From positions 8,282-72,281 of the forward strand of contig NZ_CAXXKG010000011.1 of assembly GCF_963662885.2 (NCBI RefSeq): a DNA stretch of 64,000 nt, in the 5' to 3' direction. Under the pieces are notes generated by a model. The model was not told where the DNA came from. It did no database searches and saw only the letters and a list, made by a program, of their open reading frames with translations. This DNA comes from an uncultured Pseudodesulfovibrio sp. (GTDB taxonomy: Bacteria; Desulfobacterota; Desulfovibrionia; Desulfovibrionales; Desulfovibrionaceae). Numbering within the stretch: the stretch's first letter is position 1; each line of letters begins with the position of its first letter. Of this stretch, positions 1,252-25,929 are shown piece by piece. The position numbers were made by a program, and so were the translations under genes.

Positions 1252-1279
1252 AGGCCCCGTGCAGCGATGCACGGGGCCT
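1252..1279. terminator. bidirectional stem-loop between convergent genes
   Basis: Perfect 12-bp stem aggccccgtgca / tgcacggggcct with loop gcga, followed by ttt. Lies between the stops at 1204 (+) and 1324 (-). Confidence 0.6.
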
Positions 1280-1323: not shown

Positions 1324-2847
1324 TTAGGAATCGCTGGCTCGGTCCGGGGCCGGATGGTCCACATCCATGGCCGGTTGCAGACACAGGGTTACGGTGGTTC
1401 CCTGCCCCGGGCGGCTGGCCAGGGTCACTCGGCCCCCGGATTCCTCGATGATCTTCTTGATCAGGGGCAGGCCCAGCCCGTTGCCGTCCGCCTTGGTGGA
1501 ATAGAAGGGGTTGAATGCGCGATCCAGTTCGATTTCGCTCATCCCCGTGCCGGTGTCCGTTATGCGCACGACCACGTCGCCGTCGCCCATGGTCAGGGAT
1601 ACGGTGATATTCCCGCCCTCCGGCATGGCTTCGATGGAGTTCTTGATGATGTTCACCAGGCATTGTTTCAGGGAGTCGGCGTCGCCCTGGACCGAGGGCA
1701 GGTGGTCGTCGGCCTTGATGACGATGGCGTATCCCTGGCGGCCGTAGCCCACGTCCATGAGCTCCGCCACCTCCCTGCACACGCCCGTCAGGTCCACGGC
1801 CGAGCCGGGCCCGGGGGACGGACGGACGAAATTGAGCATGTTGGTCAAGAGCTTGTCCAGTCGGCGGGTCTCCTCCACGATGATCTGGACCTTCTCGCGT
1901 TCCTGCTCGTCCAGCTTGGGGGAGCGCAGCAGGGCGTTGGCGAACCCGCCCACCGCGTAGAGCGGGTTGCGGATTTCGTGGGCCAGGTAGGTGGAAATCT
2001 CCCCGATGATGGCGAATTTATCCTGCTGTTGCTGGTACTTTTCGCGCTGGGTCCGTTCGGTAATGTCCCGGTGCATGACCATGATGTGGGACATCTGCCC
2101 GCGCATGTCGAAGATGGGGTAGGCGTAGAGCCGGTAATACTGCAACAGGCCGCTGCCGTTTACCCGGGTGACCAAGGCTTCCTCCTTGCGACCGCTGAGC
2201 AGGGTCTTGTGGAAGGGGCAGACCGGGTCGAGCTGGTTGCAGAAGGTCGAGCCGTCCCGCAGCCGGGCGGCTTCCCAGCACGGCCTTCCGAGCAGTTCCT
2301 TTCTCGGCACGCCCGCCCGCTGCCAGACCGTGCGGTTCAGGTCCTGGATGTTCCCGCTCTTGTCCAGAAGGAAGATGTCCTCGCGGATTTCGTCGATGAT
2401 GGACTGGATCAGGGTGCGCTGGTGGTCCAGGCTGGTCATGTAGTGGCCCTTGACCACGGCCATGTCGTGCAGGCCGCACAGGAAGATCAGCTCCCGGTGG
2501 TCGATGATCGCGATGGAGGGTGGCAGGTCGGCCCGCAGCGCGGCGGCGACGTCCCGGTCGCCGGTGATTTCGACCACCAGGTTGATCTCCGGATGGGCGT
2601 CGAGCATCTCCCTGTAGGTCGGGTAGACGGGGCAGGTCTCGCAGTCCTCGGGCAGCGACTGGCCGGGGGTGGTGTCGCTGATGGCGGACAGGCACATCTC
2701 GGGCAGAAATTCGCGGAAGGCCTCGTTGTAGATGATGTCGAGCAGAACCCGGAGCATGGAGCCGGTGCCGACCACGCCCACGTTGAAGGGACCGAGCGTC
2801 CCGTTCCAGTAACAGACGCCGAGGTTGTCGTATGCGAAATCGTCCAT
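1324..2847 (-). CDS. cytoplasmic sensor histidine kinase: Rossmann-like N-domain + Cys-containing PAS + HisKA/HATPase
   Basis: VGVVGTGS dinucleotide-fold-like segment. PAS-like CWEAARLRDGSTFCNQLDPVCPFH. H-box LAHEIRNPL. ATPase boxes NIIKNSIEAM, DTGTGM, GNGLGLPL. Confidence 0.9.
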   Translation of the reverse strand: MDDFAYDNLGVCYWNGTLGPFNVGVVGTGSMLRVLLDIIYNEAFREFLPEMCLSAISDTTPGQSLPEDCETCPVYPTYREMLDAHPEINLVVEITGDRDVAAALRADLPPSIAIIDHRELIFLCGLHDMAVVKGHYMTSLDHQRTLIQSIIDEIREDIFLLDKSGNIQDLNRTVWQRAGVPRKELLGRPCWEAARLRDGSTFCNQLDPVCPFHKTLLSGRKEEALVTRVNGSGLLQYYRLYAYPIFDMRGQMSHIMVMHRDITERTQREKYQQQQDKFAIIGEISTYLAHEIRNPLYAVGGFANALLRSPKLDEQEREKVQIIVEETRRLDKLLTNMLNFVRPSPGPGSAVDLTGVCREVAELMDVGYGRQGYAIVIKADDHLPSVQGDADSLKQCLVNIIKNSIEAMPEGGNITVSLTMGDGDVVVRITDTGTGMSEIELDRAFNPFYSTKADGNGLGLPLIKKIIEESGGRVTLASRPGQGTTVTLCLQPAMDVDHPAPDRASDS

Positions 2848-2889
2848 GAACTCCCTCCGGTCCGGCCTTGTCTTTGTCGACCCTTCGTC

Positions 2890-3318
2890 CTAGCGGGAAC
2901 CCGATCCGTCCAGCAGTTCGGACACGCCTATCTTGCCGTGTCGCAAAAGCTTGCGCTCCATGGCCCGCTGCACGGTCTCGAGAATCTCGGGCATGGAAGC
3001 GGGCTTGAGCAGATAGTCGAAGACCCCGTTGTGCAACAGCTTCATGGCGTCGCTGATGGAGGTGTGCCCGGTCAGGCAGACCGTTTCCACGTCAAAGCCC
3101 TGCAACTGCATTTCGTTGAAGGTCTCCGCACCCGACATGCCATCCATCTTCATGTCCAGCAAAACCACGTCGAAGTCGTTGGTGGCCAGCTTGTTCAGGG
3201 CGTCGAGTCCGCTCGCCGCCGAATCCACGGTCAATCCTTCCGCGCGGAGCAGGCGGCACAGCGACTGCCGAAACCGTTCTTCGTCGTCGACCACGAGAAT
3301 TTTCGCCTTGGGATTCAT
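2890..3318 (-). CDS. single-domain response regulator (receiver only)
   Basis: KILVVDDEE, VLLDMKMDGMSG, LTGH, DYLLKP. 142 aa with no output domain. Confidence 0.92.
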   Translation of the reverse strand: MNPKAKILVVDDEERFRQSLCRLLRAEGLTVDSAASGLDALNKLATNDFDVVLLDMKMDGMSGAETFNEMQLQGFDVETVCLTGHTSISDAMKLLHNGVFDYLLKPASMPEILETVQRAMERKLLRHGKIGVSELLDGSGSR

Positions 3319-3328
3319 GGTACACCTC

Positions 3329-4258
3329 TTATCGTTTGAAGGGAATGCGCACGTTGAACGATGCGCCCTGTCCCCTGGATGACCGCACCAGGATGTCGCC
3401 GCCCAGCTCGTTGACGATCCGCAGGCTGACGGACAGGCCGAGCCCGGTGCCCTGCCCCGGTGCCTTGGTGGTGAAAAACGGGTTGAAGATCCGGTCCCGG
3501 TATTCGTCGGGAATCCCCGGCCCGGTGTCGCGTATTTCGGTGCAGGCCATGGCCCCGTCCCGGAAGGTGGTGATGAAGATGTCGCCGTCCCGGTCCACTG
3601 CCTGAACCGCGTTGATGAGCAGGTTCAGGAATACCTGGCGCAGCAGGGGAGGGTCGGAGATCACCGCGGGCAGATGCGGGTCGAATTCCCTGTGAATGTT
3701 GATGTGACGCGGGCCTGATTCGCGCTCCACCAGCTCGAGCATGTCCTCCACCAACCTGTTCACGTCCGCTTCCTGGGCCACGGGCTTGCGGTTGCGGGCC
3801 AGGTCCAGAAGCTTGTGGGTGATATCCGAGCAGCGTGAGACCTGTGCGTGTATGACGTTCAGGCTGGTGCGGACCTCTTCCAGCACCTCGGGTAGGGCTT
3901 CGGGCGAAATGTCGGCGTTCAGGTCGCAGCGCATCAGCTCCGCCTCCTGAAGGATGATGTTCAGCGGGTTGTTGATCTCGTGGGCGATGCCCGTGGACAG
4001 TTCGCCCAGGGCCAGAACCCGCTGGGACTGGATGAGCTGGTCGTTCATTTCGACGCGCTCGGCCTCGGCCTGGTCCAGCCAACGGGCCGAGGCCCAGAGC
4101 AGCAGCCACATGCCTCCGGCCACTGCCACGGCCACGGCCAGGGCCAGGTGGTCGCCCGTGCGCCCGTGGAACCATGCGGCCGCGCCCACGGCCAGACAGG
4201 AGATCGGGAAGGCGGATCGGCCGAGCATGACGACCCGTCGGGCATAGGTCAGACTCAT
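3329..4258 (-). CDS. membrane histidine kinase with two TM helices and no obvious sensor domain
   Basis: H-box IAHEINNPL. DTGPGI and GTGLGLS boxes. Its start overlaps the stop of the upstream receiver by 4 nt. Confidence 0.9.
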   Translation of the reverse strand: MSLTYARRVVMLGRSAFPISCLAVGAAAWFHGRTGDHLALAVAVAVAGGMWLLLWASARWLDQAEAERVEMNDQLIQSQRVLALGELSTGIAHEINNPLNIILQEAELMRCDLNADISPEALPEVLEEVRTSLNVIHAQVSRCSDITHKLLDLARNRKPVAQEADVNRLVEDMLELVERESGPRHINIHREFDPHLPAVISDPPLLRQVFLNLLINAVQAVDRDGDIFITTFRDGAMACTEIRDTGPGIPDEYRDRIFNPFFTTKAPGQGTGLGLSVSLRIVNELGGDILVRSSRGQGASFNVRIPFKR

Positions 4259-4653
4259 TGCTGCCCCCGCCTCTCGATGCGCAGCCTGGCGTGCTCATAG
4301 GCCGCGCGGATGCGTTCGAGCAGGTTGTCGATGGAGAACGGCTTGAGGATGTAGTCGTAGGCCCCGAGGCTGATGCCTTCGATGCCCGACTGCAGGGAGC
4401 CGTGTCCGGTGAGCATGATGACCTCGGTGTCGCGGAACCGCTTGCGGATCTCCTTCAGCGTGTCGATGCCGGACAAGCCGGGCATGCGCACGTCCAGGAT
4501 GACCACATTCACCGGATTCTCCCGAAGGAAGGCCAGCGCGGCCTCGCCGTTGGTCACGGTGTCCACGAGAACGTTGCGCTTGGTCAGCCTGCGCCGGATG
4601 AGCTTCAGGAAATCGGGTTCGTCGTCGACCACAAGTACGCGGATCTGGTTCAT
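4255..4653 (-). CDS. single-domain response regulator
   Basis: RVLVVDDEPDF, ILDVRMPGLSG, LTGHG, DYILKP. 4-nt overlaps on both sides. Confidence 0.92.
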   Translation of the reverse strand: MNQIRVLVVDDEPDFLKLIRRRLTKRNVLVDTVTNGEAALAFLRENPVNVVILDVRMPGLSGIDTLKEIRKRFRDTEVIMLTGHGSLQSGIEGISLGAYDYILKPFSIDNLLERIRAAYEHARLRIERRGQQ

Positions 4654-6335
4654 GGTTCCTCCTTGCCGCCCGTGAATTGCGGCCCGGCAAAGGGCAGGCG
4701 GATGGTGAAGGTCGTGCCCTGTCCCGGCTCGCTGTCGACCTTGATGGTCCCGCCCAGCTTGCTCAGGGCGCTGTAGACTATGGAAAGGCCCAGCCCGGTT
4801 CCCTCGCCGGTGGGCTTGGTGGTGAAGAAGGGGTCGAACACCTTGGCCAGGTTTTCCTTGGCGATCCCCTCTCCGCTGTCGGCGATGTTCAGGACCACGC
4901 CGTCCCGGTCCGTCCGGGTGACCACCGTGATCTGGCCGTCGTGGTCGATGGCATCGATGGCGTTTTCCAGCAGGTTCAGGATGACCTGCTGCAACTGGTT
5001 GGCGTCGGTGGTGATCAGGGGGAGTTCCGGGGCGAGATCGGTTGTCAGGGCGATGTTCCGGTGCCGGGTCTCGTTTTCCAGGAAGGACGCGGTCTGGTTG
5101 GCCAGCATGTTCAGGTCCACGTCCTCCTGCAGCGGCTCCATGCGCCGGGCAAAGCCGAGCATACGGTGGGTCACGGTGCGCGCCCGCTCCACGTGGCGGT
5201 CGATGTCCGAGACCGCCTCGACCAGCTCATCCACGGCCGGGCCTTCACCCAGCTCGCCGTCGTTGATGATATCCCGGATCCAGCCCGCGCTCTCGCGGAT
5301 GATGGACAGCGGGTTGTTGACCTCGTGCGCCACGCCCGCGGCCAGCTTGCCCAAGGAGGCCATCTTGCTCGACTGCATGACCGCCGCGTCCATGTCCGCC
5401 CGCTGGCGGTCCGAGGCCCGCAGCCGGGAAACGGCCGAGGACACGGTCATGTATGCACCGAGGAAGATCATCAGGCCGCAGGCGCCGAGCAGGGCGTAGA
5501 CGATGGAGCGGGTGCGTACCAGGGGCGAAAGCTCCTCATCCGGGTTTTCCGTGATGACCAGCCGCCAGTTGGTGTCCGGCAGGGGGGTGATCCCGGCGAT
5601 GACCGGGACGCCGTCCCGCCGCCAGGATGCGATCTCCACGCCCTCGGCCTGTTCATGCGCGGGCAGGGCGACCTTTGCCAGAGCCTTGCCGCCGAAGCGC
5701 GAAGGGGTCTGGAGCACGCCCTGGCCGTTGACGATGTATGCGTCGCCCTGTTTGCCAGTGCGCACGTTGCGTACCAGCGAGGTGAACACCTCGGAGTCGA
5801 TGGTCGCCCGCAAAATCCAGGTCCTGCCCGACTCCTGGCGCTTCACCGCTATGATGAAGTGCGGGAAGTTGCGGAAGCCCATGAACACGTCGCTGATGTA
5901 CAGCCCCTTGAGCATGACCTGATGGAACCACGGCTCGTCGCGGTAGTTCACGTCCATCAGGTCGAACGGCCCGCAGTACGCCTCGTGGACGCCGTTCTGG
6001 CCGATGACCCCGATGTCGAAGAATGAGCTTGAGGTGCCGTGGACCGCGTCGAAGACCCGGTTCAGATAGGCCTGGTCGGACATCTCGGCAAAGGAGTGGA
6101 TGTCGGCCAGCATCTGGAGCTGGACCACCCGCTCGTCCAGGAACATGGAGATGGCGTCCCGCCGGTTGGCGACCATTAACCGCAGGTTGTCGGTCAATTT
6201 CTCCTCGTAGGTCTGCCGGAACTCGTTGTGAATGACGTAGCCCAGTGCGAAGAGCGGGACCAGGGAGAGTCCCAGGGTGATCAGCACCAGATACCACTTG
6301 AGGCGGGAGTATGGTGTGGCGTTCATGCCGCGCAC
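4650..6335 (-). CDS. Cache-type periplasmic sensor histidine kinase
   Basis: TM, ~250-aa extracytoplasmic region (Cache-like YISDVFMGFRNFPHFIIAV), then a second TM. H-box VAHEVNNPL. DSGEGI and GTGLGLS boxes. Paralog of 16889-18565. Confidence 0.9.
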   Translation of the reverse strand: MRGMNATPYSRLKWYLVLITLGLSLVPLFALGYVIHNEFRQTYEEKLTDNLRLMVANRRDAISMFLDERVVQLQMLADIHSFAEMSDQAYLNRVFDAVHGTSSSFFDIGVIGQNGVHEAYCGPFDLMDVNYRDEPWFHQVMLKGLYISDVFMGFRNFPHFIIAVKRQESGRTWILRATIDSEVFTSLVRNVRTGKQGDAYIVNGQGVLQTPSRFGGKALAKVALPAHEQAEGVEIASWRRDGVPVIAGITPLPDTNWRLVITENPDEELSPLVRTRSIVYALLGACGLMIFLGAYMTVSSAVSRLRASDRQRADMDAAVMQSSKMASLGKLAAGVAHEVNNPLSIIRESAGWIRDIINDGELGEGPAVDELVEAVSDIDRHVERARTVTHRMLGFARRMEPLQEDVDLNMLANQTASFLENETRHRNIALTTDLAPELPLITTDANQLQQVILNLLENAIDAIDHDGQITVVTRTDRDGVVLNIADSGEGIAKENLAKVFDPFFTTKPTGEGTGLGLSIVYSALSKLGGTIKVDSEPGQGTTFTIRLPFAGPQFTGGKEEP

Positions 6336-8938
6336 CCCGCTTCCCGGAGTTCTCCGGGCAGGCCATCCAACAGCTTTTCAATGTCCGCTTCGAAACGGTC
6401 GCGGTAGCGGACGACCATGCCCGGGTCGGCAAGGGACATGTCTATCTGTCGGGTGTGCATGAGCAGATAGCCGAGTACGGCCATGGCCTGTTCCACGGCC
6501 CGGCTGCTGACGCCCTCCAGACGGGCGAACAGGGCGTCGTCGCGGATCTCGGCGATAAAGCCTCGCTTCTCGAGAATCTCGGCCATCATGCGCGAGCGCA
6601 GATGGCGGCGGTCCATGCTCGCACCGCCTCCCTTGAACTGGAACAGGGCGTAGTTTTCGTTGGGATCGTCGCCCGCAAATCCCTCGATGGTGCAGAAGTG
6701 GAAGCCGAATCGTGATTGCAGGTTGCAGTATCGGCCGCCCACGATGAAGTAGTTGCGTTCGCCCATGTCGTTGCGCACCCCGGCTGTCAGGGCCGGATTC
6801 TGCGCCGCGTTGGTCATCACCGACATGAAACCGTCCATGGTCGGGGTGGGAGGTCCTTCCCAGGGGACGGTCATCATGCCGTACCACAGGGCCCGCATGG
6901 TACTGGACCGGACGGCGTCGATGGTGACGTTTCGGCTTGAATCCGCCGTTGCGCCCGCGTCCGCCGAGGTCCCGCCGCCGATGTCCACCAGCCAGTATTG
7001 CATGGCCCGCTCGCCGGTCAGTCTGCGCGCGCCCGAGACAGGGCGGTCGTCCCGGACGAACATCTCGTAGACCGCCTTTTCGTGGCAGAACCGGGTGATG
7101 TCGTGCATGGACCGGCATCCTTCGGGCCGGAATTCCGGGGATTCCGGGTCGGTCAGGTTCAGCGGGGTGATGAACTTGAGGACCCGTTCCAGAGCCAGCC
7201 CCACGTCGGTCGTACGCGCACGCTTTGCGGGGCGGGCTTCACGACGTATCATCCGCTTGCGGCGGCCAAGATATATGGTCCCGTTGGCCCCGTTGACCGT
7301 GACCACGCCCACGCCGGACAACCGCTCCACGGCACCGGGCGCGCCGATCAGGGCCGGGACGCCGTATTCCCTGGCCACGTTGGCCAGATGGCCCACGGAA
7401 CTGCCGAACTCGGCCACCAGGGCCGCGGCCCGGGGCAGCAGGGCGGAAAGTTGCGGACGGGCGTTCCTGGCCAGCAGGACCGCACCGTCCGGGAAGCGAA
7501 ACATGTCCTCCTCGGTCTCCACCTTGACCACGTACCCTGCGGCCGCGCCCGGGCTGGCCGGAATACAGCCGCTCAGGAGGGCCAGGCCCCGGCTCTCTTC
7601 GTCGTCCGTCCACGATTCGGACTTGTTGTCGATCCCATCGCCGCAGACGTTCAGGGGGCGGCATTGCAGGATGACGAGCAGTCCTTCGCGGTCCTTGGCC
7701 CATTCTATGTCCTGGGGATGCCCGAAATGGGCCTCTATGCGCAGGGCCATGGCGGCAAGCCGCTCCACGTCGTGGTCCGTGACGGCCGGTTCCAACTCCC
7801 TGCCGCCGAACAGCTTTTCCTTCCGGATCTTGCCGCCCGAGGTCAGAACGAACCGGATTTCCTTCTGGGCGATGTCGCGGCTTCTGATTCTGCCGGTTTC
7901 GCGGTCAACGGCGTAAGAGTCGGCCATGGAGCTGCCGTCCACCACGGCACAGGGCAGACCGGGAACGGCATTGACGATGACCACGTCCGCCTCGTCGCCC
8001 ACAGGAGGACGGGTATAGACCACGCCGCCCGCCACGGCGTTGATCATCTCCATGCACCCGGCGGCCATGACCATGCCGTCTTCGCGCAGCCCTCGGTTGC
8101 GCACGTAGGTCAGGGCCGTGGCCGAGTACATGCTTGCGATGACCTCGCGGTAGGCCTCGGTCACCCGGGCGGGTTTGACCCCGAGCCGGGAAATGAACTG
8201 TCCTGCGAACCCGGTCTGTTCCGAATCCTCGCCCAGGGCGCTGGAGCGGACCGCCAGGCGGACGTCGCCCATGCGGGCGCACTGATCGCGTACGGCTGAC
8301 TCCAGTTCGTCCGGCATGGGGGCCAGGTCGATGGCGTGACGGATACTTCGCGCCAGATCGGAAAGCTCTTCAAGGGACGTCCCGTCGTGGATCTGGATGA
8401 GCCGGTTGATTTCGTCGTCCAGGGCGGTGGATTCCATGAACAGTCGGTACCCGGAGGCCGTGATGGCGAATCCCCGCGGGACTACCGCGCCGAGTTCGGC
8501 CTTGATCTCGCCGAGCATGGCCACCTTGGAACCCGCCTCGGACAGGTCCAGGGCGCGCAGATCGGCCATACGCACCACGAGCGGGCCGAGCGGCCCCCTG
8601 GCAGGGCCGGAAAAGGCTTTGTCCATGTCTTTGACTACGGCATTGAACACATCGCGCAGGGGCTCGTATCGGTCCGGAGCCATGCTGCACAACCGCTCGA
8701 TCATCTGGCGTACGCTGGAGGCAACCATGACGCTGTAGGCCCGCACCCGGGTGATCCCGGACGGGTGGTCGGAACGGGCCGCCTCGGTCATCTCGGCCAT
8801 CAGTTCAAGGGCCTTCCCATTGGCCGCGAGCAGCAGCCTGAAGTCCTCTGACTTGTTGAGGAATCTCTCCGTTGCTTCGCGTTCGCCTTCGGGGTTGCCG
8901 TGGATGAAGCGGAACAGGGTCTTGAGCGCGGTCTTCAT
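6323..8938 (-). CDS. PEP-synthase/PPDK-like dikinase (ATP-grasp + swivel phosphohistidine domain) with an unassigned C-terminal domain
   Basis: AVRSSALGEDSEQTGFAGQF and PQDIEWAKD (PPDK_N type). Swivel motif GSSVGHLANVAREYGVPALIG (His codon 7388-7390). The C-terminal ~280 aa (6323-7162) resemble only the paralog at 38365-40818. Confidence 0.85.
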   Translation of the reverse strand: MKTALKTLFRFIHGNPEGEREATERFLNKSEDFRLLLAANGKALELMAEMTEAARSDHPSGITRVRAYSVMVASSVRQMIERLCSMAPDRYEPLRDVFNAVVKDMDKAFSGPARGPLGPLVVRMADLRALDLSEAGSKVAMLGEIKAELGAVVPRGFAITASGYRLFMESTALDDEINRLIQIHDGTSLEELSDLARSIRHAIDLAPMPDELESAVRDQCARMGDVRLAVRSSALGEDSEQTGFAGQFISRLGVKPARVTEAYREVIASMYSATALTYVRNRGLREDGMVMAAGCMEMINAVAGGVVYTRPPVGDEADVVIVNAVPGLPCAVVDGSSMADSYAVDRETGRIRSRDIAQKEIRFVLTSGGKIRKEKLFGGRELEPAVTDHDVERLAAMALRIEAHFGHPQDIEWAKDREGLLVILQCRPLNVCGDGIDNKSESWTDDEESRGLALLSGCIPASPGAAAGYVVKVETEEDMFRFPDGAVLLARNARPQLSALLPRAAALVAEFGSSVGHLANVAREYGVPALIGAPGAVERLSGVGVVTVNGANGTIYLGRRKRMIRREARPAKRARTTDVGLALERVLKFITPLNLTDPESPEFRPEGCRSMHDITRFCHEKAVYEMFVRDDRPVSGARRLTGERAMQYWLVDIGGGTSADAGATADSSRNVTIDAVRSSTMRALWYGMMTVPWEGPPTPTMDGFMSVMTNAAQNPALTAGVRNDMGERNYFIVGGRYCNLQSRFGFHFCTIEGFAGDDPNENYALFQFKGGGASMDRRHLRSRMMAEILEKRGFIAEIRDDALFARLEGVSSRAVEQAMAVLGYLLMHTRQIDMSLADPGMVVRYRDRFEADIEKLLDGLPGELREAGCAA

Positions 8939-8953
8939 GGCGGACCTCCGGGG

Positions 8954-9337
8954 CTACGGTTGGCCGCGACGTCGGGTGCGCACGGCGTCCAGCACCTTGA
9001 AATACAGCTCGTCGGTGCCCACGGGCTTGAGCAGGAAGTCGAAGGCACCCATGTCCATGCCTTTGATGAGCACGCCGGAGTCCGCGTGTCCGGTGAGGAT
9101 GATGACCGGCAGGTCCGGCCTGATCGCCTTGATCCGGCGCAGGGTCTCGAGTCCGTTCATCTCCGGCATCATGACGTCGAGGATGGCCACGTCGAACTCG
9201 CTTTCACGGACGTGGTCGATGGCCTGCTGTCCGCTGGAGGCCTCGGTAATCTCCACGTTTCTCCGCTTGAAGCGGCGCGCGTAAGCGGTCAGAAAATCCG
9301 GTTCGTCATCGACCAGGAGCAGGCGTATCTTTTTCAT
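8954..9337 (-). CDS. single-domain response regulator
   Basis: The track ORF runs to 9421, but ATG 9337 follows GGAGGA and yields MKKIRLLLVDDEPDF. ILDVMMPEMNG, LTGH, DFLLKP. Confidence 0.9.
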   Translation of the reverse strand: MKKIRLLLVDDEPDFLTAYARRFKRRNVEITEASSGQQAIDHVRESEFDVAILDVMMPEMNGLETLRRIKAIRPDLPVIILTGHADSGVLIKGMDMGAFDFLLKPVGTDELYFKVLDAVRTRRRGQP

Positions 9338-9378
9338 GGCGGTCCTCCGTTGCGGGGACTCCCCTACGGGGCCGGGGG

Positions 9379-9394
9379 CGGGGGCGCGCCCCCG
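9379..9394. repeat. 16-bp perfect GC palindrome (cgggggcgcgcccccg) in the Yip1-receiver gap
   Basis: Read directly from the sequence. Possible intra-operon hairpin. Confidence 0.5.
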
Positions 9395-9454
9395 GCCGGA
9401 TGGGGAGGGTAAGGAATGCATGCGCGCGCTCGTCGTTCGCGCGGGGGGACATCC

Positions 9455-10003
9455 CTATTGGAACAGTTCCTTCAGCTCCATGACCATGGGGGCCGCGGTC
9501 CAGAAAAAGAGGAGCATGACCACTGCGGTCAGGAGGATGAGCGTGAACGCCCTGGTCTTGCTCACCCCGAGCCCCTTGTGCAGTCCCACGCCGATGAGCA
9601 GAGCGCGGACCGGTTCCATGACCACGGCCAGCCCCGGAATCCAGGAGACGACCATGACCGCGCCGCTGGCGTATGCGTAGATGTTGAAGACCCGGCCGAA
9701 GCCGGTCCGGTCTCGCCCGGTCATGCCCATGAGGGTGAAGGTGATTACCGCCCCGAAGGCGGGCATGAGGATGGCGTTGAGCATCATGACCATCCCCATG
9801 GACAGGGAGTTTTCGAAAAAGTAGGCCATGCTCACCGAGCAGTAGAACAGGGCCGAAATCATCAGGAAGAGCAGCGCCCGGCGTGAACCCGGTTCGTCGG
9901 CCACCCGCTCGAAGTGGCGCACGGGCGTGCGCATGACGTCCATCAAGGTCTCGAAATATTCCCGGATCCCCATCCGTTGGCTGGTCTCTCGCGTCGCTTC
10001 CAT
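9455..10003 (-). CDS. Yip1-family-like polytopic membrane protein
   Basis: 182 aa. A short cytoplasmic N-terminus is followed by about five hydrophobic helices. The overall pattern resembles the YIP1 domain. Confidence 0.6.
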   Translation of the reverse strand: MEATRETSQRMGIREYFETLMDVMRTPVRHFERVADEPGSRRALLFLMISALFYCSVSMAYFFENSLSMGMVMMLNAILMPAFGAVITFTLMGMTGRDRTGFGRVFNIYAYASGAVMVVSWIPGLAVVMEPVRALLIGVGLHKGLGVSKTRAFTLILLTAVVMLLFFWTAAPMVMELKELFQ

Positions 10004-10033
10004 GGTGCCCCCATGTGTTGATGAATCGAAGGT

Positions 10034-10183
10034 CTAGAACAGGTCGCTGGTGCATTCGTAAATGCCCCAGGCCAGCATGAGTATGGTCAGTACGAACAGT
10101 ATCTTGCGTTCGGTTTGCTTGCTGAAGTAGGTCACGCCGTTCTTGTGGACGAATTCGCGTTCCCGCTTTTCTTGCTCTCGCAT
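10034..10183 (-). CDS. 49-aa single-TM peptide (below the ORF-track length cutoff)
   Basis: GGAGAAACCC then ATG. MREQEKREREFVHKNGVTYFSKQTERKILFVLTILMLAWGIYECTSDLF. GC3-biased codons. Sits between the DASS and Yip1 genes. Confidence 0.4.
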   Translation of the reverse strand: MREQEKREREFVHKNGVTYFSKQTERKILFVLTILMLAWGIYECTSDLF

Positions 10184-10199
10184 GGGTTTCTCCTTTGGG

Positions 10200-10227
10200 A
10201 GGCGGCCCGCCCGGAAGCGGGCCGCCT
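10200..10227 (-). other. intercistronic stem-loop downstream of the DASS transporter gene
   Basis: aggcggcccgc / gcgggccgcct 11-bp stem with a 6-nt loop and no T-tract on the minus strand. Confidence 0.45.
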
Positions 10228-10250
10228 GTTGGTGTTTCAGGTCAGGGTCG

Positions 10251-12101
10251 TCAGAACGACGGCAGGCTTCCGAATCCGATGCCGCTCCAGTAGATCGCCG
10301 TGAGCAGCACGATCATTATGTTGGCGATGAACCACATGGGGATGCCCACGCGCAGGTAGTCCTTGGGCTCCAGGTAGCCGGAGGCGTAGACGATGGCGTT
10401 GGGCGGGGTCCCGATGATCAGGCAGTAGGCGAAGGAAGATGCCACTGCGGTGGCCATGGCCATGAACGGCAGGAAGGTGGTGCCGGGGTGCACGATGCTG
10501 GCCATGTTCAGGGTGATGGGACCGACCGCGGCGGCTGCTGGGCCGTCGGCCATCAGGTTGGTCAGCACGGCGGTCAGGCCGTTGGAGGTCAGCATTAGCG
10601 GGATGCCGTGGTCCATGCCCAGCGGGGCCAGCATGTCGATGACGGATTGGGCCAGCCAGTAGGCGGCGCCGGTCTTGTCCAGGGTGCGGCCGAAGATGAT
10701 CGCGCCCGCGTACAGCCAGACAACGCCCCAGTCCACCTTCTCCTGATAGTCGCGCCAGTTGACCACGCCGGCCAGCAGGTAGGCCACAGCGCCCGCGACC
10801 GCGATGACGCCGATGCCGAGACGGATGGGGTAGATGCCCATGTTGTAGAATTCCTTCTCGGTGAACCAGCCGAAGACCATGACGGCGAAGATGACCATTG
10901 CCCAGATCTGGTGCTTGTTCCACTTGCCCATCTTGCCGATTTCGCCTTCCAGGTGCCGCATGGCTGGAGCCAGGGAGGTGATACGGGGCTTGAAGAGCAG
11001 GTTGGTGGCGAACCAGGTGATCGGGATCATGACGACCACGAACGGGAAGCAGTACATGATCCACTGCGCGTACCCGATGTCCATGCCGAACATGTCGGTC
11101 AGGTAGGTCATCATGATGACGTTGCGCGCGCCGCCGGACGGAGCGCCGGGGCCGCCGATGTTACAGGCCATGGCGATGGAGATCATCAGCATCTTGGCCA
11201 GTTCCTTGTCCTCGGGCACCTCGTCGGTCAGGCTGTTCTGGTAGAGCAGCATGCCGATGGGCAGGAACATGGCGGCCAGGGCGTGGTCGGAGATGAACGC
11301 GGCCAGCGGGGAGATGACGATGAAGAAGATGAGCGTGATCCAACGGACGTTGGGCACGGCCAGCTTCTTGAACATCAGGAGACACATGCGCTTGTCCACG
11401 CCGGTCTTGACGAAGGCGGCGGCGAACATGAGCGAACCCATGATGAACCATACCGCGTCGTCCCAGTAGAGTCCGGCCACCTCGCTGCGCGAGACCACGC
11501 CGGTGAAGACCAGAATGAGGCCGATGCAGAACGCCACGCCGGGCAGCGGCATGCATTCGGTCATGAAGCAGAAGACCACGAACACGACCATGGCGATGGC
11601 CACCTTGATGCTCCAGGCCCCCTTGTTGGCGCTCTTCTGGTCCTTCTTGGACAGCTCCTGGTAGTCCAGGCCCTTCATGCGCTTGTCAAAAGCGCCCTTC
11701 ATGATGCTCATGTACCTGTCGGGCGGGATGGTATCGTCCACGAAGGCCAGGGCGCGCTTGAAGTTTTCCGAATCCACGGGGATCTTGTACTTCTTGGCCC
11801 AACTTTCGTTGCGCTTCATGAGCCGTTCCTTGGACAGGGCGCCCATGCGCATGTTCTGTTCCATCATGCGGGCGGTCAGCAGCTCCCACTGCTCGCAGGC
11901 CGAGCTTTTTTTCTGGAAGAGCTCCTGACAGAGATAGTTGGTCACGACCTTGGGGCCGACCGAATACTGCATGCCGACCTTCTTCATCCCCTGGGGGGTG
12001 GGAAGAAGCAGGATTGCAGTGAAAAGTACCACCGGAATTATGAGCAGCTTCCAATTGACGAACTTGTCGTAACCGGTCGCTTTCTTCTTTGCTTGAGCCA
12101 T
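10251..12101 (-). CDS. DASS/SLC13-family anion (di/tricarboxylate or sulfate) transporter with a long N-terminal extension
   Basis: 616 aa with many TM helices and an SLC13-like repeat architecture. The first ~165 aa are one TM plus a charged soluble region. Confidence 0.8.
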   Translation of the reverse strand: MAQAKKKATGYDKFVNWKLLIIPVVLFTAILLLPTPQGMKKVGMQYSVGPKVVTNYLCQELFQKKSSACEQWELLTARMMEQNMRMGALSKERLMKRNESWAKKYKIPVDSENFKRALAFVDDTIPPDRYMSIMKGAFDKRMKGLDYQELSKKDQKSANKGAWSIKVAIAMVVFVVFCFMTECMPLPGVAFCIGLILVFTGVVSRSEVAGLYWDDAVWFIMGSLMFAAAFVKTGVDKRMCLLMFKKLAVPNVRWITLIFFIVISPLAAFISDHALAAMFLPIGMLLYQNSLTDEVPEDKELAKMLMISIAMACNIGGPGAPSGGARNVIMMTYLTDMFGMDIGYAQWIMYCFPFVVVMIPITWFATNLLFKPRITSLAPAMRHLEGEIGKMGKWNKHQIWAMVIFAVMVFGWFTEKEFYNMGIYPIRLGIGVIAVAGAVAYLLAGVVNWRDYQEKVDWGVVWLYAGAIIFGRTLDKTGAAYWLAQSVIDMLAPLGMDHGIPLMLTSNGLTAVLTNLMADGPAAAAVGPITLNMASIVHPGTTFLPFMAMATAVASSFAYCLIIGTPPNAIVYASGYLEPKDYLRVGIPMWFIANIMIVLLTAIYWSGIGFGSLPSF

Positions 12102-12127
12102 TTGGAACCTCGCAATCGGGCTTCGGG

Positions 12128-13027
12128 TTAGCTGGACGAAATGATCTTGGCGATTTCGTAGAAGAGTTCCTGTTCGCGAACGATGCCCACGTCCCTGTTC
12201 CCGTCACGGACGAGCATGCGCCGGGCCGGAAGCGTGATCATCGTGTTCGCCACGTCCATGAGATTGGCGTCTGCATTGATGACCGGGATGGTGTCGGACA
12301 TGATGTCGCGCACGGGATTGCCCATGGTTTCCCTGACCCGCGAGGAGAACAGCCCCTGCCAGAACATGGCCGAGTATTGGAGGCTGTCCGCCATGGACGG
12401 CTTGGGCGCGGACAGATAGCCGGGCCTGATGGCGTCCACCAGGTCCAGTGGGCTGAGCAGACCGGCCACGCTGCCGTCGGGATTCGTGACCACCACCGAG
12501 CGGTGCCCGGTGTCCATGAGCCGGTCCGTGGCCATGAGATGGCGCATGGACTCCTCAAGGGCCTTGATGGCGTCGCGTACGGTGCTGTTCAGGGGAATCT
12601 GGGTATATTCGTCCAGAGGGATCATGATCCCTCGGGCCAGCTTTTCGACGTAGGGCGCCTTGGTGGCGTACTCGAAGGCGTCCTGAATCTTGGTGCTCAG
12701 GAGGTCCACGTCGCAGGGTTTGGCCAGGTAATCGAAGGCGCCGGTGTCGAGCGCCTTCTTGGCTCCGGGCATGTCGCCGTGGCCGGTGAGCATTATCACC
12801 GGCAGTTCCGGCAGTTTGGCCTTGATCAGTTTGAGGGTTTCGTGTCCGTCCAGGCCACCCATTTTGACATCCAGAATGACGACGTCCGGCTTGTCGGCCA
12901 GTTTCTCCAACGCCTCTTCCCCACTGGCCGCCAGGATCGTGTCGAATCCTTTGCGGGCCAATATCTTCGCAGTGGTGGTGCGGAAGCGTTCCTCATCGTC
13001 GACCATGAGGACCTTGATTTTAACCAT
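12128..13027 (-). CDS. response regulator: receiver + CBS-pair domain
   Basis: KVLMVDDEERF, ILDVKMGGLDG, LTGHG, DYLAKP, followed by ~150 aa with a tandem CBS-like pattern. Confidence 0.8.
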   Translation of the reverse strand: MVKIKVLMVDDEERFRTTTAKILARKGFDTILAASGEEALEKLADKPDVVILDVKMGGLDGHETLKLIKAKLPELPVIMLTGHGDMPGAKKALDTGAFDYLAKPCDVDLLSTKIQDAFEYATKAPYVEKLARGIMIPLDEYTQIPLNSTVRDAIKALEESMRHLMATDRLMDTGHRSVVVTNPDGSVAGLLSPLDLVDAIRPGYLSAPKPSMADSLQYSAMFWQGLFSSRVRETMGNPVRDIMSDTIPVINADANLMDVANTMITLPARRMLVRDGNRDVGIVREQELFYEIAKIISSS

Positions 13028-13047
13028 TACAACCTCCTTGAAGTTAG

Positions 13048-13482
13048 CTAGCGCAGTTCACCCTGACCGGTGGATTCAACCATCCGGGCAGAGTGTATTT
13101 TCTTTTTTTGAAGCGTAACTTTTTCAAAGGCTTCCTCGGCCTTGCCAAGAAAGTCCTTCATGCTGACGGGTTTGATCAGATAGTCCAGGGCACCGAGCTT
13201 GAGGCCCTCCACCGCGGTTTCCATGGTGGCGTGTCCGGTGAGGATGATGACCTCGCTTAGGGGATGGTTCTTCTTGATGTGCTGCAGCGTTTCCATGCCA
13301 TCCATTCCGGGCATCTTGATGTCGAGAAAGATGACGTGCGCTTCATAGGCATTCAGCACGTCGAGGGCGTCGGCTCCAGAGGTGGCCGTGCGCGTCTCGA
13401 TGCCGAGTTTTTCGAACAGCTTTTTCGTGGTACTGAGCAGTCGCTCTTCATCGTCCACGAGGAGGATTCTCATCTGTTCCAT
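13048..13482 (-). CDS. single-domain response regulator
   Basis: Start moved to ATG 13482 (MEQMRILLVDDEERL). FLDIKMPGMDG, LTGH, DYLIKP. Confidence 0.9.
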   Translation of the reverse strand: MEQMRILLVDDEERLLSTTKKLFEKLGIETRTATSGADALDVLNAYEAHVIFLDIKMPGMDGMETLQHIKKNHPLSEVIILTGHATMETAVEGLKLGALDYLIKPVSMKDFLGKAEEAFEKVTLQKKKIHSARMVESTGQGELR

Positions 13483-13513
13483 GGTGTCACCGTTGGGTTG
13501 ATCGGTTGTTATT

Positions 13514-13636
13514 CCGCAAAATCTGTCCCAACTTAGCAACTCACATGCCAAACATAACTAATTGATTTATAGAACTATTTTCACGCAAAATTGATTGCGA
13601 GACAGGTTTGCAAGATGCTATTGCACGCAAAATCTG
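13514..13636. promoter_or_regulatory. three CGCAAAAT(C/T)TG boxes (candidate activator sites)
   Basis: ccgcaaaatctg at 13514-13525, cacgcaaaattg at 13582-13593 (part of the inverted repeat CGCAA-N6-TTGCG), and cacgcaaaatctg at 13624-13636. Confidence 0.4.
13536..13550 (-). promoter_or_regulatory. sigma-54 (-24/-12) promoter
   Basis: The minus strand reads TGGCAT-GTGAG-TTGC, an exact GG-N10-GC geometry. The predicted +1 is about 42 nt upstream of ATG 13482. Confidence 0.7.
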
Positions 13637-13826
13637 GCGGTGAATTGAATGATGGAGCGTGGTATGGGAACAATTCAGGGGTGCTCAATGCCCACAGCCC
13701 ACAGGGATGGCAGGAGAATTCCGGGACAGGTACGCATATCCCACATGACGGAAGGCATGGATACTGCTAGGCTACGTTACGTTCATGTTAAGAAAGAGGT
13801 CTTCGGACCAAGGGGAATGGTGGCGC

Positions 13827-16800
13827 ATGCCTTCGTTGTATTATGATAAAAATGATCATAAACTACTTGAAATAGTAGAAGATGTTTTAAATCGCGGCGT
13901 GGACAAGACGCAGTTCAAGACACTGCTCGAGCCCTACCTGAAGCCCCACGGCATCAAGGAACTGGCAGCGGACAGGGGATTGCGCATTGCCTATGCGATC
14001 ATGCACCTGCTCGAATCGCTCAAGTCGGATCAGGCCTCAGAGCGGACCAAGGCCCTTATCGCCCTGCGCGACGAGACCCTGACCGCGGCCAAGGGCCCCA
14101 TGCGCAACAACAGGGCACGGGTCCTGCTCCAGATCGGCAAGGAATTGGTCCGGGCCAAGGGCGACCGTTGTCGTCAACTGGCCCTGGCCCATGACTTTCG
14201 CCGCGCCGCGGCCGGAAAGGTCGGCTTTTTGCGCCAACAGATGCGCCGCTATCACCTCCTGGAGATGCCCGAGGAGTGGAATCAGATCGCCTTTGACGAT
14301 CGGGTTCATGACGCCAACAGCAAAGGACGCAAATCCGCAACCCACCTGGTCATGGACGCCTGGATCAAGGGCATTCGCTATTTGACCGTGGTCTATTATG
14401 ATTGCGTGGATCTGCCCGTGGCGCGGGAGTTGCTGGCCTCGGCCGCCATCCTCGGCATCAAGGTGCGCCTGGGCATCGAGTACCGCGCCATGCACCGGGG
14501 CCGATTCATCAAGTTCGTCTGGTGCCCCGGGGGGCTGCGTGACGACTGCGATATCGAGAGCCTTTTCCGGGTGGACGCGGTACGGGAACTGATGGAGCAG
14601 GGCAGAGAGGTTCGCGCGACCCGTTCGGAATACGTTCGGGCCGTGATCGGCGCCTACAACGAGCGGCACCGTCAATCCATCCACAAGGAATTCGGGGTCA
14701 TGCTGCCGCCGGTGGACTATGATGAAATGGTCGCCGCCGTGGGCGTGGACCAGCCTTCGGTCCTGCATTTGGGCAATTACATCCACTCTCAGGCCATGCC
14801 GCTTTTCGAGGAGCGGGTTGCCGCCCTGCGCAAGTGGGCCGACCAGGCGGATTACGACGCCAGAGCCGCCATCGCCATGCAGGTGGAATCATTGGATGCC
14901 CTGGACGTGGACACCCTGGTGGCCCGGTATCTTTCCCCGGCTGAGAACCGGGACATCCCGGACCCGGACATGCCTCGGGATGAGGGGCTGCCGGCCCTGC
15001 TTTCCATGACTCCGGCCGAGTTGACCTCCAGGTTGCGCAAAGTGGCCCATTCCAGCCACCTGACATTGATCCTGGCCGATCTCGAGCTGGAAGACGTTCT
15101 GGAGATTCTCTTCCAGTGCCAGGGCCGCATCACCCATCTGGAAGTGTTCAACACCAAGCATCTCGACCCTGGCCAGACCCGGCAGCGTATGCCGTTCAGC
15201 CAGTTGCAGCAGGCTCTCAACGAGCAGAGCGCGGTCAAGCTCAAGCGACTCATCCGCGCCTGCATGGACGATGTCCGCAAGCGGGACAGTGCGGACGCCG
15301 AGGACCGACTGGAGATACTGGAAGGGGTTTTGGAACGGTTCAACAGACTTTTGGAGTTCTACAAGCGGGTGCCGCTGGGAACCAGCATCGGTTCCGGCTC
15401 CACAGGGCGTTCCACCCGGACCCATGGCATGGGATTCGCGGTCCTGGAGACCCTTCCTCTGCGGGCCCAGCGCGAGGCGGCGCGGCTTCAGCCCGGCGAT
15501 CGTATCCCGGTGCAGTGCACGGCGATCCGGTCCAACGAGTATGTCATGCCCCGTCAGACAAAGGGATTCTGGAGCGGGCTGATCCATATGGTTTCCCAGA
15601 TGTCCATCCTGCGTCGGCTCGTCTGCCGCGTATGCACCCGATGGCGTGTGGAGGAATATGCCGTGATCGAAACGGGCGGCAACCTGCTCGCCCTGGGCGG
15701 CAGGCGGCAGGAAGGCAACGGGCTGTCCCTGTTCAAGTCCGATGGCCCTTGCCAGCATCGTCCTTCGCTCGGCCATCTGAACACCAGGCTCAAGAACCTG
15801 CTCAAGGTCATGGCCGGATTCATCCCCGCCTTTCTGACCTTTTACCTGACCAAGGACTGGTGGGTTCTGGCCTACCTCGGCGGACTCATCTGGTTTTCCA
15901 TCACGGGCCTGCGCAACGTCATCCAGTCGGTGCTCGGCGGCGGCGGGCTCAGGCGCTCACCGTTTTTGGCCTGGAACGACTACGTCGACTGGGAGCGGAT
16001 CTCCGAGTCCCTGCTCTATACGGGCTTTTCCGTGCCGCTGCTCGACTGGCTGTGCAAGTCGATGCTCATGGACAAGGGGTTCGGGGTGACCACGGCCACG
16101 AACCCGTTGCTGCTCTATTCCGTCATGGCCCTGACCAACGGGATCTACATCTCGACGCACAACGTGATCCGTGGATTGCCCAGGGAGGCGGCTGCGGCCA
16201 ATTTCTTCCGCAGCGTGCTGTCCATCCCCATCGCCATGCTCTTCAACTGGGCCATCCAGGGCATTCTGGTTCTGGCGGGATCGGCGGACCCCATGGCCGC
16301 GCTGCAACTGTGGGCGGCGGTCATCTCCAAACTGGCCTCGGACTGCGTGGCCGGCGTCATCGAAGGATTTGCGGACCGCAGGCGGAACATCGCCATGCGC
16401 CGATGGGATTATTCGGAAAAGCTGCGCCAGGTCTTTGAAATCTATTCGCGCCTGGAGATCGCCTTCCCCACTCGGGATATGCTCGGCATGCTCAACCGCC
16501 CTGCGGAGTTCATCGCCTTTTCCAGGGAGTCGAACTTCAACCATGTTCCCGAGGTTATCGCCAACGCCTTGGATCTGCTGTACATAATGGCCTACAAACC
16601 GCGCGCCAGAGAGGCCCTGCGCCAGGCCCTGGAGACCATGTCCGAGGACGAGCTGTCCGTGTTCCTGGCATCGCAGCAGATTCTGCGCGAGGAACAGTCG
16701 GTCTCCATGCTCTTCGTGGACGGCCTGGTCGGGCGCAACTTCGCCAAGGGTTTGTCCTTCTACCTGACCCGCTACGGGGCCTATCTGGACCAGATCGGCA

Positions 16801-18693: not shown

Positions 18694-18726
18694 GAAAGGA
18701 TTTGACAAAGGGGTTTGAAGGGGCAT

Positions 18727-25491: not shown

Positions 25492-25929
<438 letters not shown>

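Follow-up and report, generated by a model that had tools for sequence, protein, structure and literature searches.

A probable sigma-54 operon linking stand-alone receivers, an atypical dikinase and an anion transporter in Pseudodesulfovibrio: a candidate post-translational controller of oxyanion uptake

Introduction

What is controlled by a set of two-component proteins whose receivers carry no DNA-binding domain? This question is raised by a minus-strand gene cluster in a 64,000-nucleotide stretch of DNA from an uncultured Pseudodesulfovibrio sp. (contig NZ_CAXXKG010000011.1, positions 8,282 to 72,281 of the forward strand; hereafter the window), in which three histidine kinases and five receivers accompany a DASS-family anion transporter and a dikinase that resembles phosphoenolpyruvate (PEP) synthase. 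An initial annotation of the window had taken the cluster for a sigma-54 operon encoding a branched, non-transcriptional phosphorelay. Such a system is of interest with regard to the sulfate uptake proteins of dissimilatory sulfate reducers and their regulation, for which it offers concrete genes and proteins. Four protein families, DASS, SulP and TSUP/TauE among them, have been proposed to import sulfate into these organisms, no transporter having been identified experimentally (PMC5840216).

Two types of related clusters have been reported. In the nitrate cluster of Desulfovibrio (DVU0245-DVU0251 / Dde_0597-Dde_0605; Korte et al. 2014, PMC4001038), nitrate resistance results from transposon insertion in any of the genes for TauE, the binding protein, the receiver and the dikinase, in both DvH and G20, while the DvH phosphatase mutant shows the opposite effect and is more nitrate-sensitive (PMC4001038). 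The G20 mutants are moreover mildly sick on thiosulfate, and a leaky thiosulfate transporter was suggested by the authors (PMC4001038). That work provides phenotypes only and no mechanism (PMC4001038), and in our literature search the genes were named in this 2014 paper only. In Desulfobacteraceae, clusters composed of DASS, cache-kinase, regulator, USP, CBS and REC-CBS genes were proposed to control sulfate uptake (Sci Adv 2025, PMC11887813), the regulators being of the WalR type and the proposed control transcriptional (PMC11887813). The locus described here is a more elaborate variant of these two cluster types, which have been described but not explained. Most likely, it represents a post-translational controller of oxyanion uptake in which the dikinase serves as a receiver-coupled effector.

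Results

A twelve-gene unit with conserved order

The twelve successive open reading frames (ORFs) between positions 1324 and 13482 (Table 1) show coding-type GC contents at third codon positions (GC3) of 0.82-0.90. The series of twelve minus-strand genes reaching from 1324 up to the promoter is hence present as first annotated, with GC3 and Pfam in agreement, and so are its overlaps of 13, 4 and 4 nt and its gaps of 10-117 nt (in operon order 20, 26, 67, 30, 117, 15, -13, -4, -4, 10 and 42 nt). Pfam also agrees with the domain labels given initially, except for the label "Rossmann" on the N-terminal 145 residues of the PAS kinase. This label could not be verified, the region containing only a GxGxxG-like string and having no significant Pfam or NCBIfam match, even at E<=5. 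All twelve genes occur in the same order in Maridesulfovibrio, whose dikinase is 53% identical to that of the operon, while the DASS proteins of Maridesulfovibrio and the window are 87% identical.

Because its product is conserved in four orthologous loci (L001-L004), all of which keep the motif NG[VT]TYFSKxTER[RK]ILF, the 49-aa ORF can be regarded as a real gene, although the peptide belongs to no Pfam or NCBIfam family, even at E<=5. Two other gene calls were rejected. A start of receiver 1 at TTG 13551 would overlap the promoter, and ATG 13482 is the start conserved in Maridesulfovibrio; the ORF at 3315-4298, considered as the two-transmembrane (two-TM) kinase gene, is in the wrong frame and Arg/Gly/Pro-rich, the correct gene being 3329-4258. 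On balance, we favor the view that the twelve genes constitute one functional unit, probably a single sigma-54-dependent transcript, which controls anion uptake post-translationally.

The dikinase is not a PEP synthase

The dikinase consists of an N-terminal helical domain (residues ~1-115), an ATP-grasp domain (PF01326, PPDK_N, 2.9e-76, residues 134-438), a swivelling His domain (PF00391, 2e-14, residues 482-553) and a C-terminal domain (residues ~580-865). Because H517 of the swivel domain is invariant in 86 sequences, autophosphorylation from ATP would be expected. Pfam matches are confined to residues 134-553: for the N-terminal domain no significant Pfam or NCBIfam match was obtained, even at E<=5, and in residues 571-871 no Pfam match to the PEP-utilizers_C TIM barrel, again even at E<=5. 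All NCBIfam scores are below their cutoffs (NF005057, 287 vs 598 bits; TIGR01418, 274 vs 740 bits), including that of the rifampin phosphotransferase (RPH) equivalog (198 vs 999 bits). When PDB sequences were searched with the family profile, PEP synthases, RPH and pyruvate phosphate dikinase (PPDK) were matched, only up to profile position ~609, the closest solved relatives being PEP synthase 2ols, RPH 5hv1 and HpeI 9goj. A Foldseek search with the full-length model likewise matched only the ATP-grasp and swivel parts, and against RPH only the ATP-grasp domain aligns. Since the TIM barrel is missing and the scores lie far under the equivalog cutoffs, the protein is, by these comparisons, not a PEP synthase, its barrel being replaced by an unrelated conserved domain. 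Relatives appear in databases as "phosphoenolpyruvate synthase" or "pyruvate, water dikinase", and the family is misannotated as PEP synthase in many genomes.

The AlphaFold model of the C-terminal domain is confident (pLDDT 84), and Foldseek found no match for it among PDB folds (best E 0.02, TM <0.3); YbjN-like and type III secretion (T3SS) chaperone-like folds, considered at that E of 0.02 and TM <0.3, were too weak to be used. The domain comprises ~290 aa and is strongly conserved, with H612, D613, R616, H619, E620, W685, H747, N762, G770, G771, R781, D801 and D833 among its invariant residues. It is present in at least 1152 representative clusters (50% identity), almost always as the C-terminus of proteins of 850-890 aa, and some proteins of 380-425 aa consist of the swivel domain and the C-terminal domain only. 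P. hydrargyri and 'D. caledoniensis' have proteins that share 88-89% of their residues with the operon dikinase.

With PEP synthase, PPDK and enzyme I of the phosphotransferase system (PTS) the dikinase shares the ATP-grasp and phosphohistidine mobile domains in the same order; it differs from them by the replaced C-terminal barrel and the additional N-terminal helical domain. RPH, PigC/RedH and HpeI also combine an ATP-grasp with a His swivel domain and phosphorylate substrates other than pyruvate. In RPH, however, a substrate domain of its own lies between the ATP-grasp and the C-terminal His domain, whereas the window dikinase has a central His domain followed by the new domain. Both domain order and score thus place it outside the rifampin phosphotransferases, and outside the shared domains the small-molecule dikinases show neither sequence nor fold similarity to it.

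Receivers and kinases form two-component pairs rather than a phosphorelay

All five receivers of the operon, as well as the receiver of a second locus described below, keep the CheY residues D12, D13, D57, T87 and K109. Apart from the CBS pair of receiver 2 they have no output domain, and Pfam in this respect bears out the claim that none of the five possesses a DNA-binding output. The proteins qualify as two-component proteins in that the kinases contain HisKA and HATPase_c and the receivers the acidic pocket together with D57, T87 and K109. According to Pfam, none of the twelve products contains an HPt domain and no kinase contains a receiver domain; a conserved HPt-like His in the N-terminal helical domain of the dikinase was sought in the family alignment and not found. 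Of the branched, non-transcriptional phosphorelay originally proposed, the non-transcriptional part therefore stands, given the missing DNA-binding outputs, while the strict phosphorelay is dropped, because there is neither an HPt domain nor a hybrid kinase. The system is best described as several parallel or branched two-component pairs instead of a strict His-Asp-His-Asp phosphorelay.

In a neighbour-joining tree of 179 receiver domains, the clades follow gene position. One clade is found just before TauE or just before the dikinase. The clade of receiver 3 adjoins the dikinase in L001-4, L013, L017, L018, L054 and L079, and members of the receiver 4 clade always occupy the middle of a kinase-receiver-kinase arrangement. 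We consider it likely that the receivers act post-translationally. In this they would resemble single-domain regulators of the CheY, DivK and CpdR type, which are also receiver-only, have intact acceptor sites and are encoded beside the presumed kinase or target. The difference lies in the presumed target, which is here a dikinase or an anion transporter; for either of these as target of a single-domain receiver, we know of no precedent.

Dikinase loci combine receivers, kinases and exchangeable transporters

A genome scan yielded at least 584 dikinase relatives, essentially all of them from Desulfobacterota. Eighty loci were annotated by similarity to the window proteins, 58 of them with at least 5 kb of upstream sequence, and neighbours were counted on the same strand within 6.5 kb of the dikinase. 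A receiver is present in 57/58 loci, a histidine kinase in 51/58 and a TauE or DASS gene in 53/58. A stand-alone receiver is located directly upstream of the dikinase in 21 of the 58 loci, and in 32 of them this place is taken by a membrane protein that we call M228. The commonest layout, dCache kinase, two or three receivers, TauE, M228 and dikinase, often has as its neighbours a PAS kinase together with a sigma-54 activator, or else DASS-kinase-receiver-kinase-REC-CBS modules. Other recurrent components of the loci are tandem USP proteins and a degenerate receiver.

A core with the order receiver-dikinase-kinase-receiver-kinase-receiver is conserved, and the transporter part is exchangeable: the core is preceded by TauE and M228 in L036, by the DASS, 49-aa and Yip1 genes in the window and by DUF2721 and SulP (Sulfate_transp and STAS) in L054. 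Because the type of transporter changes around a constant core, the link to transport is strengthened. The receiver-dikinase pair, found twice in the window with gaps of 15 nt in the operon and 53 nt at the second locus as initially given, was suggested from this recurrence to be a functional couple. Beyond this genome, adjacency is seen in the 21/58 loci with a directly upstream receiver, co-occurrence within the cluster in 57/58, and the receiver clades are position-specific. Together with this phylogenetic profile, the shared mutant phenotype in the published nitrate cluster (PMC4001038) argues for the proposed couple, and the dikinase is probably functionally coupled to the neighbouring receiver.

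M228 (L010 7066-7752 and ~44 other loci) almost always lies between TauE and the dikinase; it has 228 aa, its soluble domain of ~160 aa lying between two terminal TM segments, and matches no Pfam or NCBIfam family, even at E<=5. Yip1 was considered as an M228 homolog and rejected, BLASTP giving no similarity and the TM topologies being different. Two dikinase paralogs within 10 kb, in tandem or divergent, also occur in L054 (1883-4477 and 7941-10562), L020 and L040, which mirrors the window.

Relation to the DASS clusters of Desulfobacteraceae

With the DASS clusters (PMC11887813) the operon has in common the DASS transporter, cache sensor kinases, response regulators and a receiver-CBS fusion, and by this gene content it belongs among them. 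The comparison was made with loci from metagenome-assembled genomes (MAGs) of Desulfobacteraceae and not with the published Ds. variabilis sequences. The REC-CBS protein is 53-58% identical over its full length to the REC-CBS proteins of these clusters, and the dCache kinase 43% identical to their kinases. In Desulfobacteraceae MAGs, DASS-kinase-REC-kinase-REC-CBS modules adjoin the dikinase, and USP genes are recurrent. The published cluster categories, on the other hand, include neither dikinase nor TauE (PMC11887813), and the window operon is devoid of a USP gene. Whether the module controls the uptake of an oxyanion, probably sulfate or thiosulfate, is in our estimate evenly poised.

A conserved, predicted sigma-54 promoter

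The TGGCAT-N5-TTGC motif from which the operon was proposed to start is present at 13536-13550. Its sequence TGGCATgtgagTTGC fits the GG at -24 and the GC at -12 at canonical spacing (TGGCAC-N5-TTGC). Considered alone, motifs of this type are not above chance in the 64-kb window, with 7 one-mismatch matches vs 5.5 expected. The core TTGGCA[TC]-N5-GTTGC is invariant in 5/5 orthologous upstream regions from two genera, among them those of two Pseudodesulfovibrio relatives and two Maridesulfovibrio genomes, the flanks having otherwise diverged. Throughout the 80 loci, strict sigma-54 motifs number 40 on the dikinase strand vs 4 on the opposite strand, the expectation from a first-order Markov model being ~2.5, which amounts to a ~16-fold enrichment. 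When the dikinase upstream region was scanned in those loci whose flank measures at least 5 kb, 26/29 matches were outside labelled genes, and they often precede TauE, kinase or receiver genes. Genes for sigma-54 activators are frequent neighbours in the dikinase loci. Given the conservation of the core across genera and the enrichment of the motif in the cluster family, we regard the sigma-54 dependence of the predicted operon promoter as well supported.

One activator gene (18746-21322) is situated ~5 kb from the operon promoter, of which its product is a candidate regulator; the N-terminus of this protein has no significant Pfam or NCBIfam match, even at E<=5. Divergent from it runs the gene of a second dCache kinase (16889-18565), whose ortholog in Maridesulfovibrio is placed directly upstream of receiver 1.

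Several further elements were noted in this region. A sigma-54-like CGGCAC-N5-TTGC is found at 18679-18693 in front of the second dCache kinase gene, and the region 18566-18745 ahead of it also contains a perfect inverted repeat, TGCAAAA-N7-TTTTGCA. Half-sites TTTTGC[AG] / [CT]GCAA are common to 18566-18745 and 13500-13640 and may be sites of one common regulator. A weaker sigma-54-like element, TGGGACagattTTGC (13516-13530, minus strand), lies 20 nt downstream of the main one and is conserved within Pseudodesulfovibrio only. The gene at 13785-16847 (plus strand), divergent from the sigma-54 promoter, encodes a 1020-aa protein without Pfam or NCBIfam match, which is conserved in the two closest relatives (L001, L004); Maridesulfovibrio has a kinase gene at this place.

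Intercistronic hairpins

The two internal GC-rich hairpins of the operon (Table 1) raise the question of whether they split the cluster. Both are found in Maridesulfovibrio with position and stem length kept and sequence different; selection therefore seems to act on the structure. Scans for sigma-70 promoters and intrinsic terminators inside the cluster gave results at or below chance, and the hairpin at the operon end, like the internal ones, has no U-tract. Since the internal hairpins end 16 and ~33 nt before the next start codons, so that no room is left for a promoter, read-through is favored over separate units, and read-through with segmental stabilisation or attenuation would be the simplest reading. 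The two conserved hairpins may thus modulate the transcript.

The second locus and the nitrate cluster

The window contains a second dikinase locus on the plus strand (32285-41875), interrupted by a single opposite-strand gene. The two dikinases are 32% identical over their whole length, the unannotated C-terminal domain included, and can accordingly be classed as true full-length paralogs. The seven-gene block recurs, its gene sizes unchanged, in D. aminophilus and a further member of the Desulfovibrionaceae (L081, L082). In its gene order by domain and its near-identical gene sizes the second locus resembles the nitrate cluster. The twelve-gene operon does not follow the order of that cluster (TauE, hypothetical protein, PtxB-like protein, PAS/HAMP kinase, receiver, dikinase, DSP) and shares with it only receiver, dikinase and kinase. 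Common to both are the stand-alone receiver directly upstream of a dikinase made of PPDK_N and mobile domain, a sensor kinase and an anion permease. In the operon, however, the DASS, 49-aa and Yip1 genes replace TauE and the hypothetical protein, a periplasmic binding protein and a dual-specificity (DSP) phosphatase are missing, three kinases and five receivers take the place of one each, and a sigma-54 promoter is present.

The 218-aa membrane protein of the second locus has no significant Pfam or NCBIfam match, even at E<=5; it was considered as a relative of M228 and is unrelated. The last gene (40754-41875, plus strand) encodes a DSP-type phosphatase fused to a CxxCxxCC putative metal-chelating domain. 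As annotated, its start overlaps the dikinase gene by 65 nt, and the true start is probably later (4-nt overlap in L081). At the TauE end, 29439-32248 encodes a cytoplasmic-looking molybdopterin oxidoreductase (695 aa) and a Fer4_11 protein. The same neighbours are present in D. aminophilus (L081 1-2714) and could be relevant to the proposal that the nitrate cluster concerns thiosulfate.

Table 1. Coordinates of the operon, its regulatory elements and associated features in the window.
Feature	Position	Strand	Evidence and remarks
Receiver 1, stand-alone REC, 144 aa	13048-13482	-	Pfam Response_reg 1.4e-29; start codon conserved; acceptor residues kept
Receiver 2, REC and CBS pair, 299 aa	12128-13027	-	Pfam Response_reg and CBS
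DASS-family anion:Na+ symporter, 616 aa	10251-12101	-	Pfam Na_sulph_symp 2.7e-48; NCBIfam TIGR00785 222.7 bits, above cutoff
49-aa single-TM protein	10034-10183	-	Protein-level conservation; Shine-Dalgarno AGGAG
Yip1-domain multi-TM protein, 182 aa	9455-10003	-	Pfam Yip1 2.7e-11; syntenic in L001-L004
Receiver 3, stand-alone, 127 aa, 15 nt upstream of dikinase	8954-9337	-	Pfam Response_reg 5e-31
Atypical dikinase, 871 aa	6323-8938	-	PPDK_N and PEP-utilizers mobile domain only
dCache sensor histidine kinase, 561 aa	4650-6335	-	Pfam dCache_1, HisKA, HATPase_c
Receiver 4, stand-alone, 132 aa	4255-4653	-	Pfam 1.7e-32
Two-TM histidine kinase, 309 aa	3329-4258	-	Pfam HisKA, HATPase_c; two hydrophobic segments
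Receiver 5, stand-alone, 142 aa	2890-3318	-	Pfam 1.3e-26; own clade
Cytoplasmic PAS histidine kinase, 507 aa, with 145-aa N-terminal domain	1324-2847	-	Pfam PAS_4, HisKA, HATPase_c
Sigma-54 -24/-12 element TGGCATgtgagTTGC	13536-13550	-	~54 nt upstream of first ATG; TGGCAT-N5-TTGC
Conserved upstream repeats TTTTGCGTGCAAT; CGCAAT-N5-TTGCG; putative activator binding region	13560-13640	-	Alignment block in orthologous upstream regions
GC-rich intercistronic hairpin after DASS gene	10200-10227		No U-tract; 16 nt before next start codon
GC-rich intercistronic hairpin, Yip1/receiver 3 gap	9370-9397		No U-tract; ~33 nt to next ATG; includes palindrome 9379-9394
Strong GC hairpin, operon end	1252-1279		Shared with convergent gene 530-1204
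Membrane-anchored sigma-54 activator, AAA+ and C-terminal helix-turn-helix (HTH), without receiver domain	18746-21322	+	Pfam Sigma54_activat 7e-59
Second dCache kinase, operon-associated	16889-18565	-	Pfam; orthologs L002/L003 1430-3121
Paralogous second locus	32285-41875	+	TauE, 218-aa membrane protein, PhnD-like binding protein, sCache-HAMP-PAS kinase, receiver, dikinase, DSP phosphatase
Second-locus receiver	37946-38311	+	Acceptor residues kept
Second-locus dikinase paralog	38365-40818	+	Full-length paralog
bPH_5 gene interrupting second locus	34260-34793	-	Single opposite-strand gene

Discussion

How might such a set of proteins work? In the mechanism that we propose, the DASS transporter and the two small membrane proteins would be coupled to a sensing network of several kinases, the receivers of which have proteins and not DNA as their targets, while the two hairpins would tune the relative amounts of the transcript segments. 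The periplasmic dCache kinases would respond to an oxyanion outside the cell, most probably one of the sulfate or thiosulfate kind, whereas the cytoplasmic PAS kinase and the REC-CBS protein would report the internal or energy state. Each kinase would phosphorylate the single-domain receiver encoded next to it, with receiver 3 as the dedicated partner of the dikinase; from gene position we infer these pairings, though the direction in which receiver and dikinase act on each other could be either. The dikinase would phosphorylate itself at H517 from ATP, giving AMP and Pi as in other swivelling-His dikinases, and its C-terminal domain would hand the phosphate to a target that sets transporter activity, a protein hydroxyl being a more likely acceptor than a metabolite. 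At the paralogous locus, the Cys-type dual-specificity phosphatase would then erase the phosphate mark. That the dikinase indeed phosphorylates a protein target and the phosphatase dephosphorylates it is, in our judgement, a tentative proposal that is rather less likely to hold than to fail.

Several observations weigh against this picture. All evidence for this locus comes from sequence analysis. The regulators of the related DASS clusters are WalR-type (PMC11887813), as opposed to the output-less receivers found here, and the window DASS protein shares only 27-32% identity with its counterparts in those Desulfobacteraceae clusters, the substrate assignment resting on the family (TIGR00785). 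No fusion of receiver and dikinase was found among unusually long family members, in which the extra ~210 aa carry no Pfam domain. The internal hairpins are similar to the terminal one of the operon, and some transcripts could end at them. The second locus was equated with the nitrate cluster by gene order and domains, DvH not being among the 120 matches listed, and the fitness of the G20 phosphatase mutant has the same sign as that of the other mutants, which weakens the idea of a writer and an eraser (PMC4001038). Finally, the invariant His, Arg and Asp residues of the C-terminal domain would suit a small anionic substrate equally well.

The last point leads to the strongest alternative, according to which the dikinase is a metabolic enzyme that phosphorylates an imported small molecule for activation or trapping, comparable to phenylphosphate synthase, HpeI or rifampin phosphotransferase, with the two-component genes adjusting expression or activity to supply. 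The closest solved relatives 2ols, 5hv1 and 9goj are small-molecule dikinases, the C-terminal domain is dense in invariant His, Arg, Asp and Gly-Gly, a typical pattern for sites that bind a small ligand or phosphate, nearly all loci have a transporter gene next to the dikinase, and the short proteins of 380-425 aa recall the split subunits of small-molecule dikinases. However, the transporter changes between TauE, DASS and SulP while the C-terminal domain stays conserved. A single organic substrate would hardly be compatible with this, whereas a common inorganic oxyanion would be. Furthermore, loss of the dikinase in DvH and G20 produces the phenotype of transporter loss, pointing to control of transport rather than downstream metabolism, and the phosphatase of the paralogous locus is of the Cys-based protein type. 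We therefore judge a metabolic role unlikely.

Alternatively, the output could be transcriptional after all, with the receivers as phosphate sinks or connectors that modulate kinases and sigma-54 activators, and the dikinase as one regulated product. Elsewhere, single-domain receivers do serve as phosphate sinks. The family shows a strong association with sigma-54 motifs and activator genes, and many loci carry a PAS-kinase and activator pair beside TauE-M228-(receiver)-dikinase. Against such a role, the receiver clades hold fixed positions by the dikinase or transporter even between distantly related organisms, a sink function would not require as many as five receivers alongside three or four kinases, and the local activator has no receiver domain to compete on. 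This leaves a transcriptional output quite improbable.

Slightly less probable still is a reversed flow of phosphate, in which the dikinase would act as a non-canonical phosphodonor and the aspartate of the receiver next to it would take over the H517 phosphate; the relay would be ATP-driven and PTS-like and would do without the histidine kinases. A homologous protein, enzyme I of the PTS, offers a precedent for transfer from His to a protein. A phosphohistidine carrier domain beside a receiver with intact acceptor site would fit this scheme, as would loci with receiver and dikinase and no kinase within 8 kb (e.g. L018, L024, L047, L053 and L067). Kinases are nevertheless present in 51/58 loci, the N-terminal domain lacks an HPt-like conserved histidine, and the active-site-like conserved C-terminal domain would be left without an obvious role. 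The remaining possibility, a chance juxtaposition of unrelated units around an ordinary gluconeogenic PEP synthase, to which the database names and the internal hairpins as potential transcript boundaries would lend themselves, is contradicted by the domain and synteny data, namely the missing PEP/pyruvate TIM barrel with scores far under the equivalog cutoffs, the twelve-gene synteny kept at 53% dikinase identity and the family-wide association with receiver, kinase and transporter, and appears highly improbable.

Returning to post-translational control of oxyanion uptake, the operon type connects DASS, TauE/TSUP and SulP, the three leading candidate families of transporters, with a single conserved control module. 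In its most far-reaching form, the dikinase would be the first of a new class of signalling kinases, gated by a receiver, with a new-fold C-terminal domain that phosphorylates a protein of the transporter complex, a DSP phosphatase as eraser, and TauE, DASS or SulP as the object of a fast switch of sulfate or thiosulfate uptake. We offer this as speculation and think it more doubtful than the protein-target proposal on which it builds. If it were true, sulfate reducers would owe to the receiver-gated dikinase module the rapid post-translational switching of sulfate or thiosulfate uptake for which a mechanism has long been sought. In any case, the substrate of the dikinase, once found, would define a new enzyme activity and possibly a new two-component output. 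As the related cluster sets the nitrate sensitivity of Desulfovibrio, the system is also relevant to the control of oil-field souring (PMC4001038).

Other features of the window

Adjoining the sigma-54 activator gene, 21452-24556 (minus strand) encodes a glycine-betaine-type ABC transporter with OpuAC binding protein, permease and an ATPase with CBS domains. It is followed at 25492-27408 (minus strand) by an arsenic-resistance-like set that comprises an ArsR-family HTH protein, an SBF/ACR3-type carrier and a low-molecular-weight phosphatase (ArsC-like). Further sigma-54 motifs were noted at 58180-58194 (minus strand), preceding the gene at 56584-58167, and at 44971-44985 (plus strand), where a perfect consensus, TGGCACggcgtTTGC, is located just upstream of nifH (45030-45860) as a classical nitrogen-fixation promoter.

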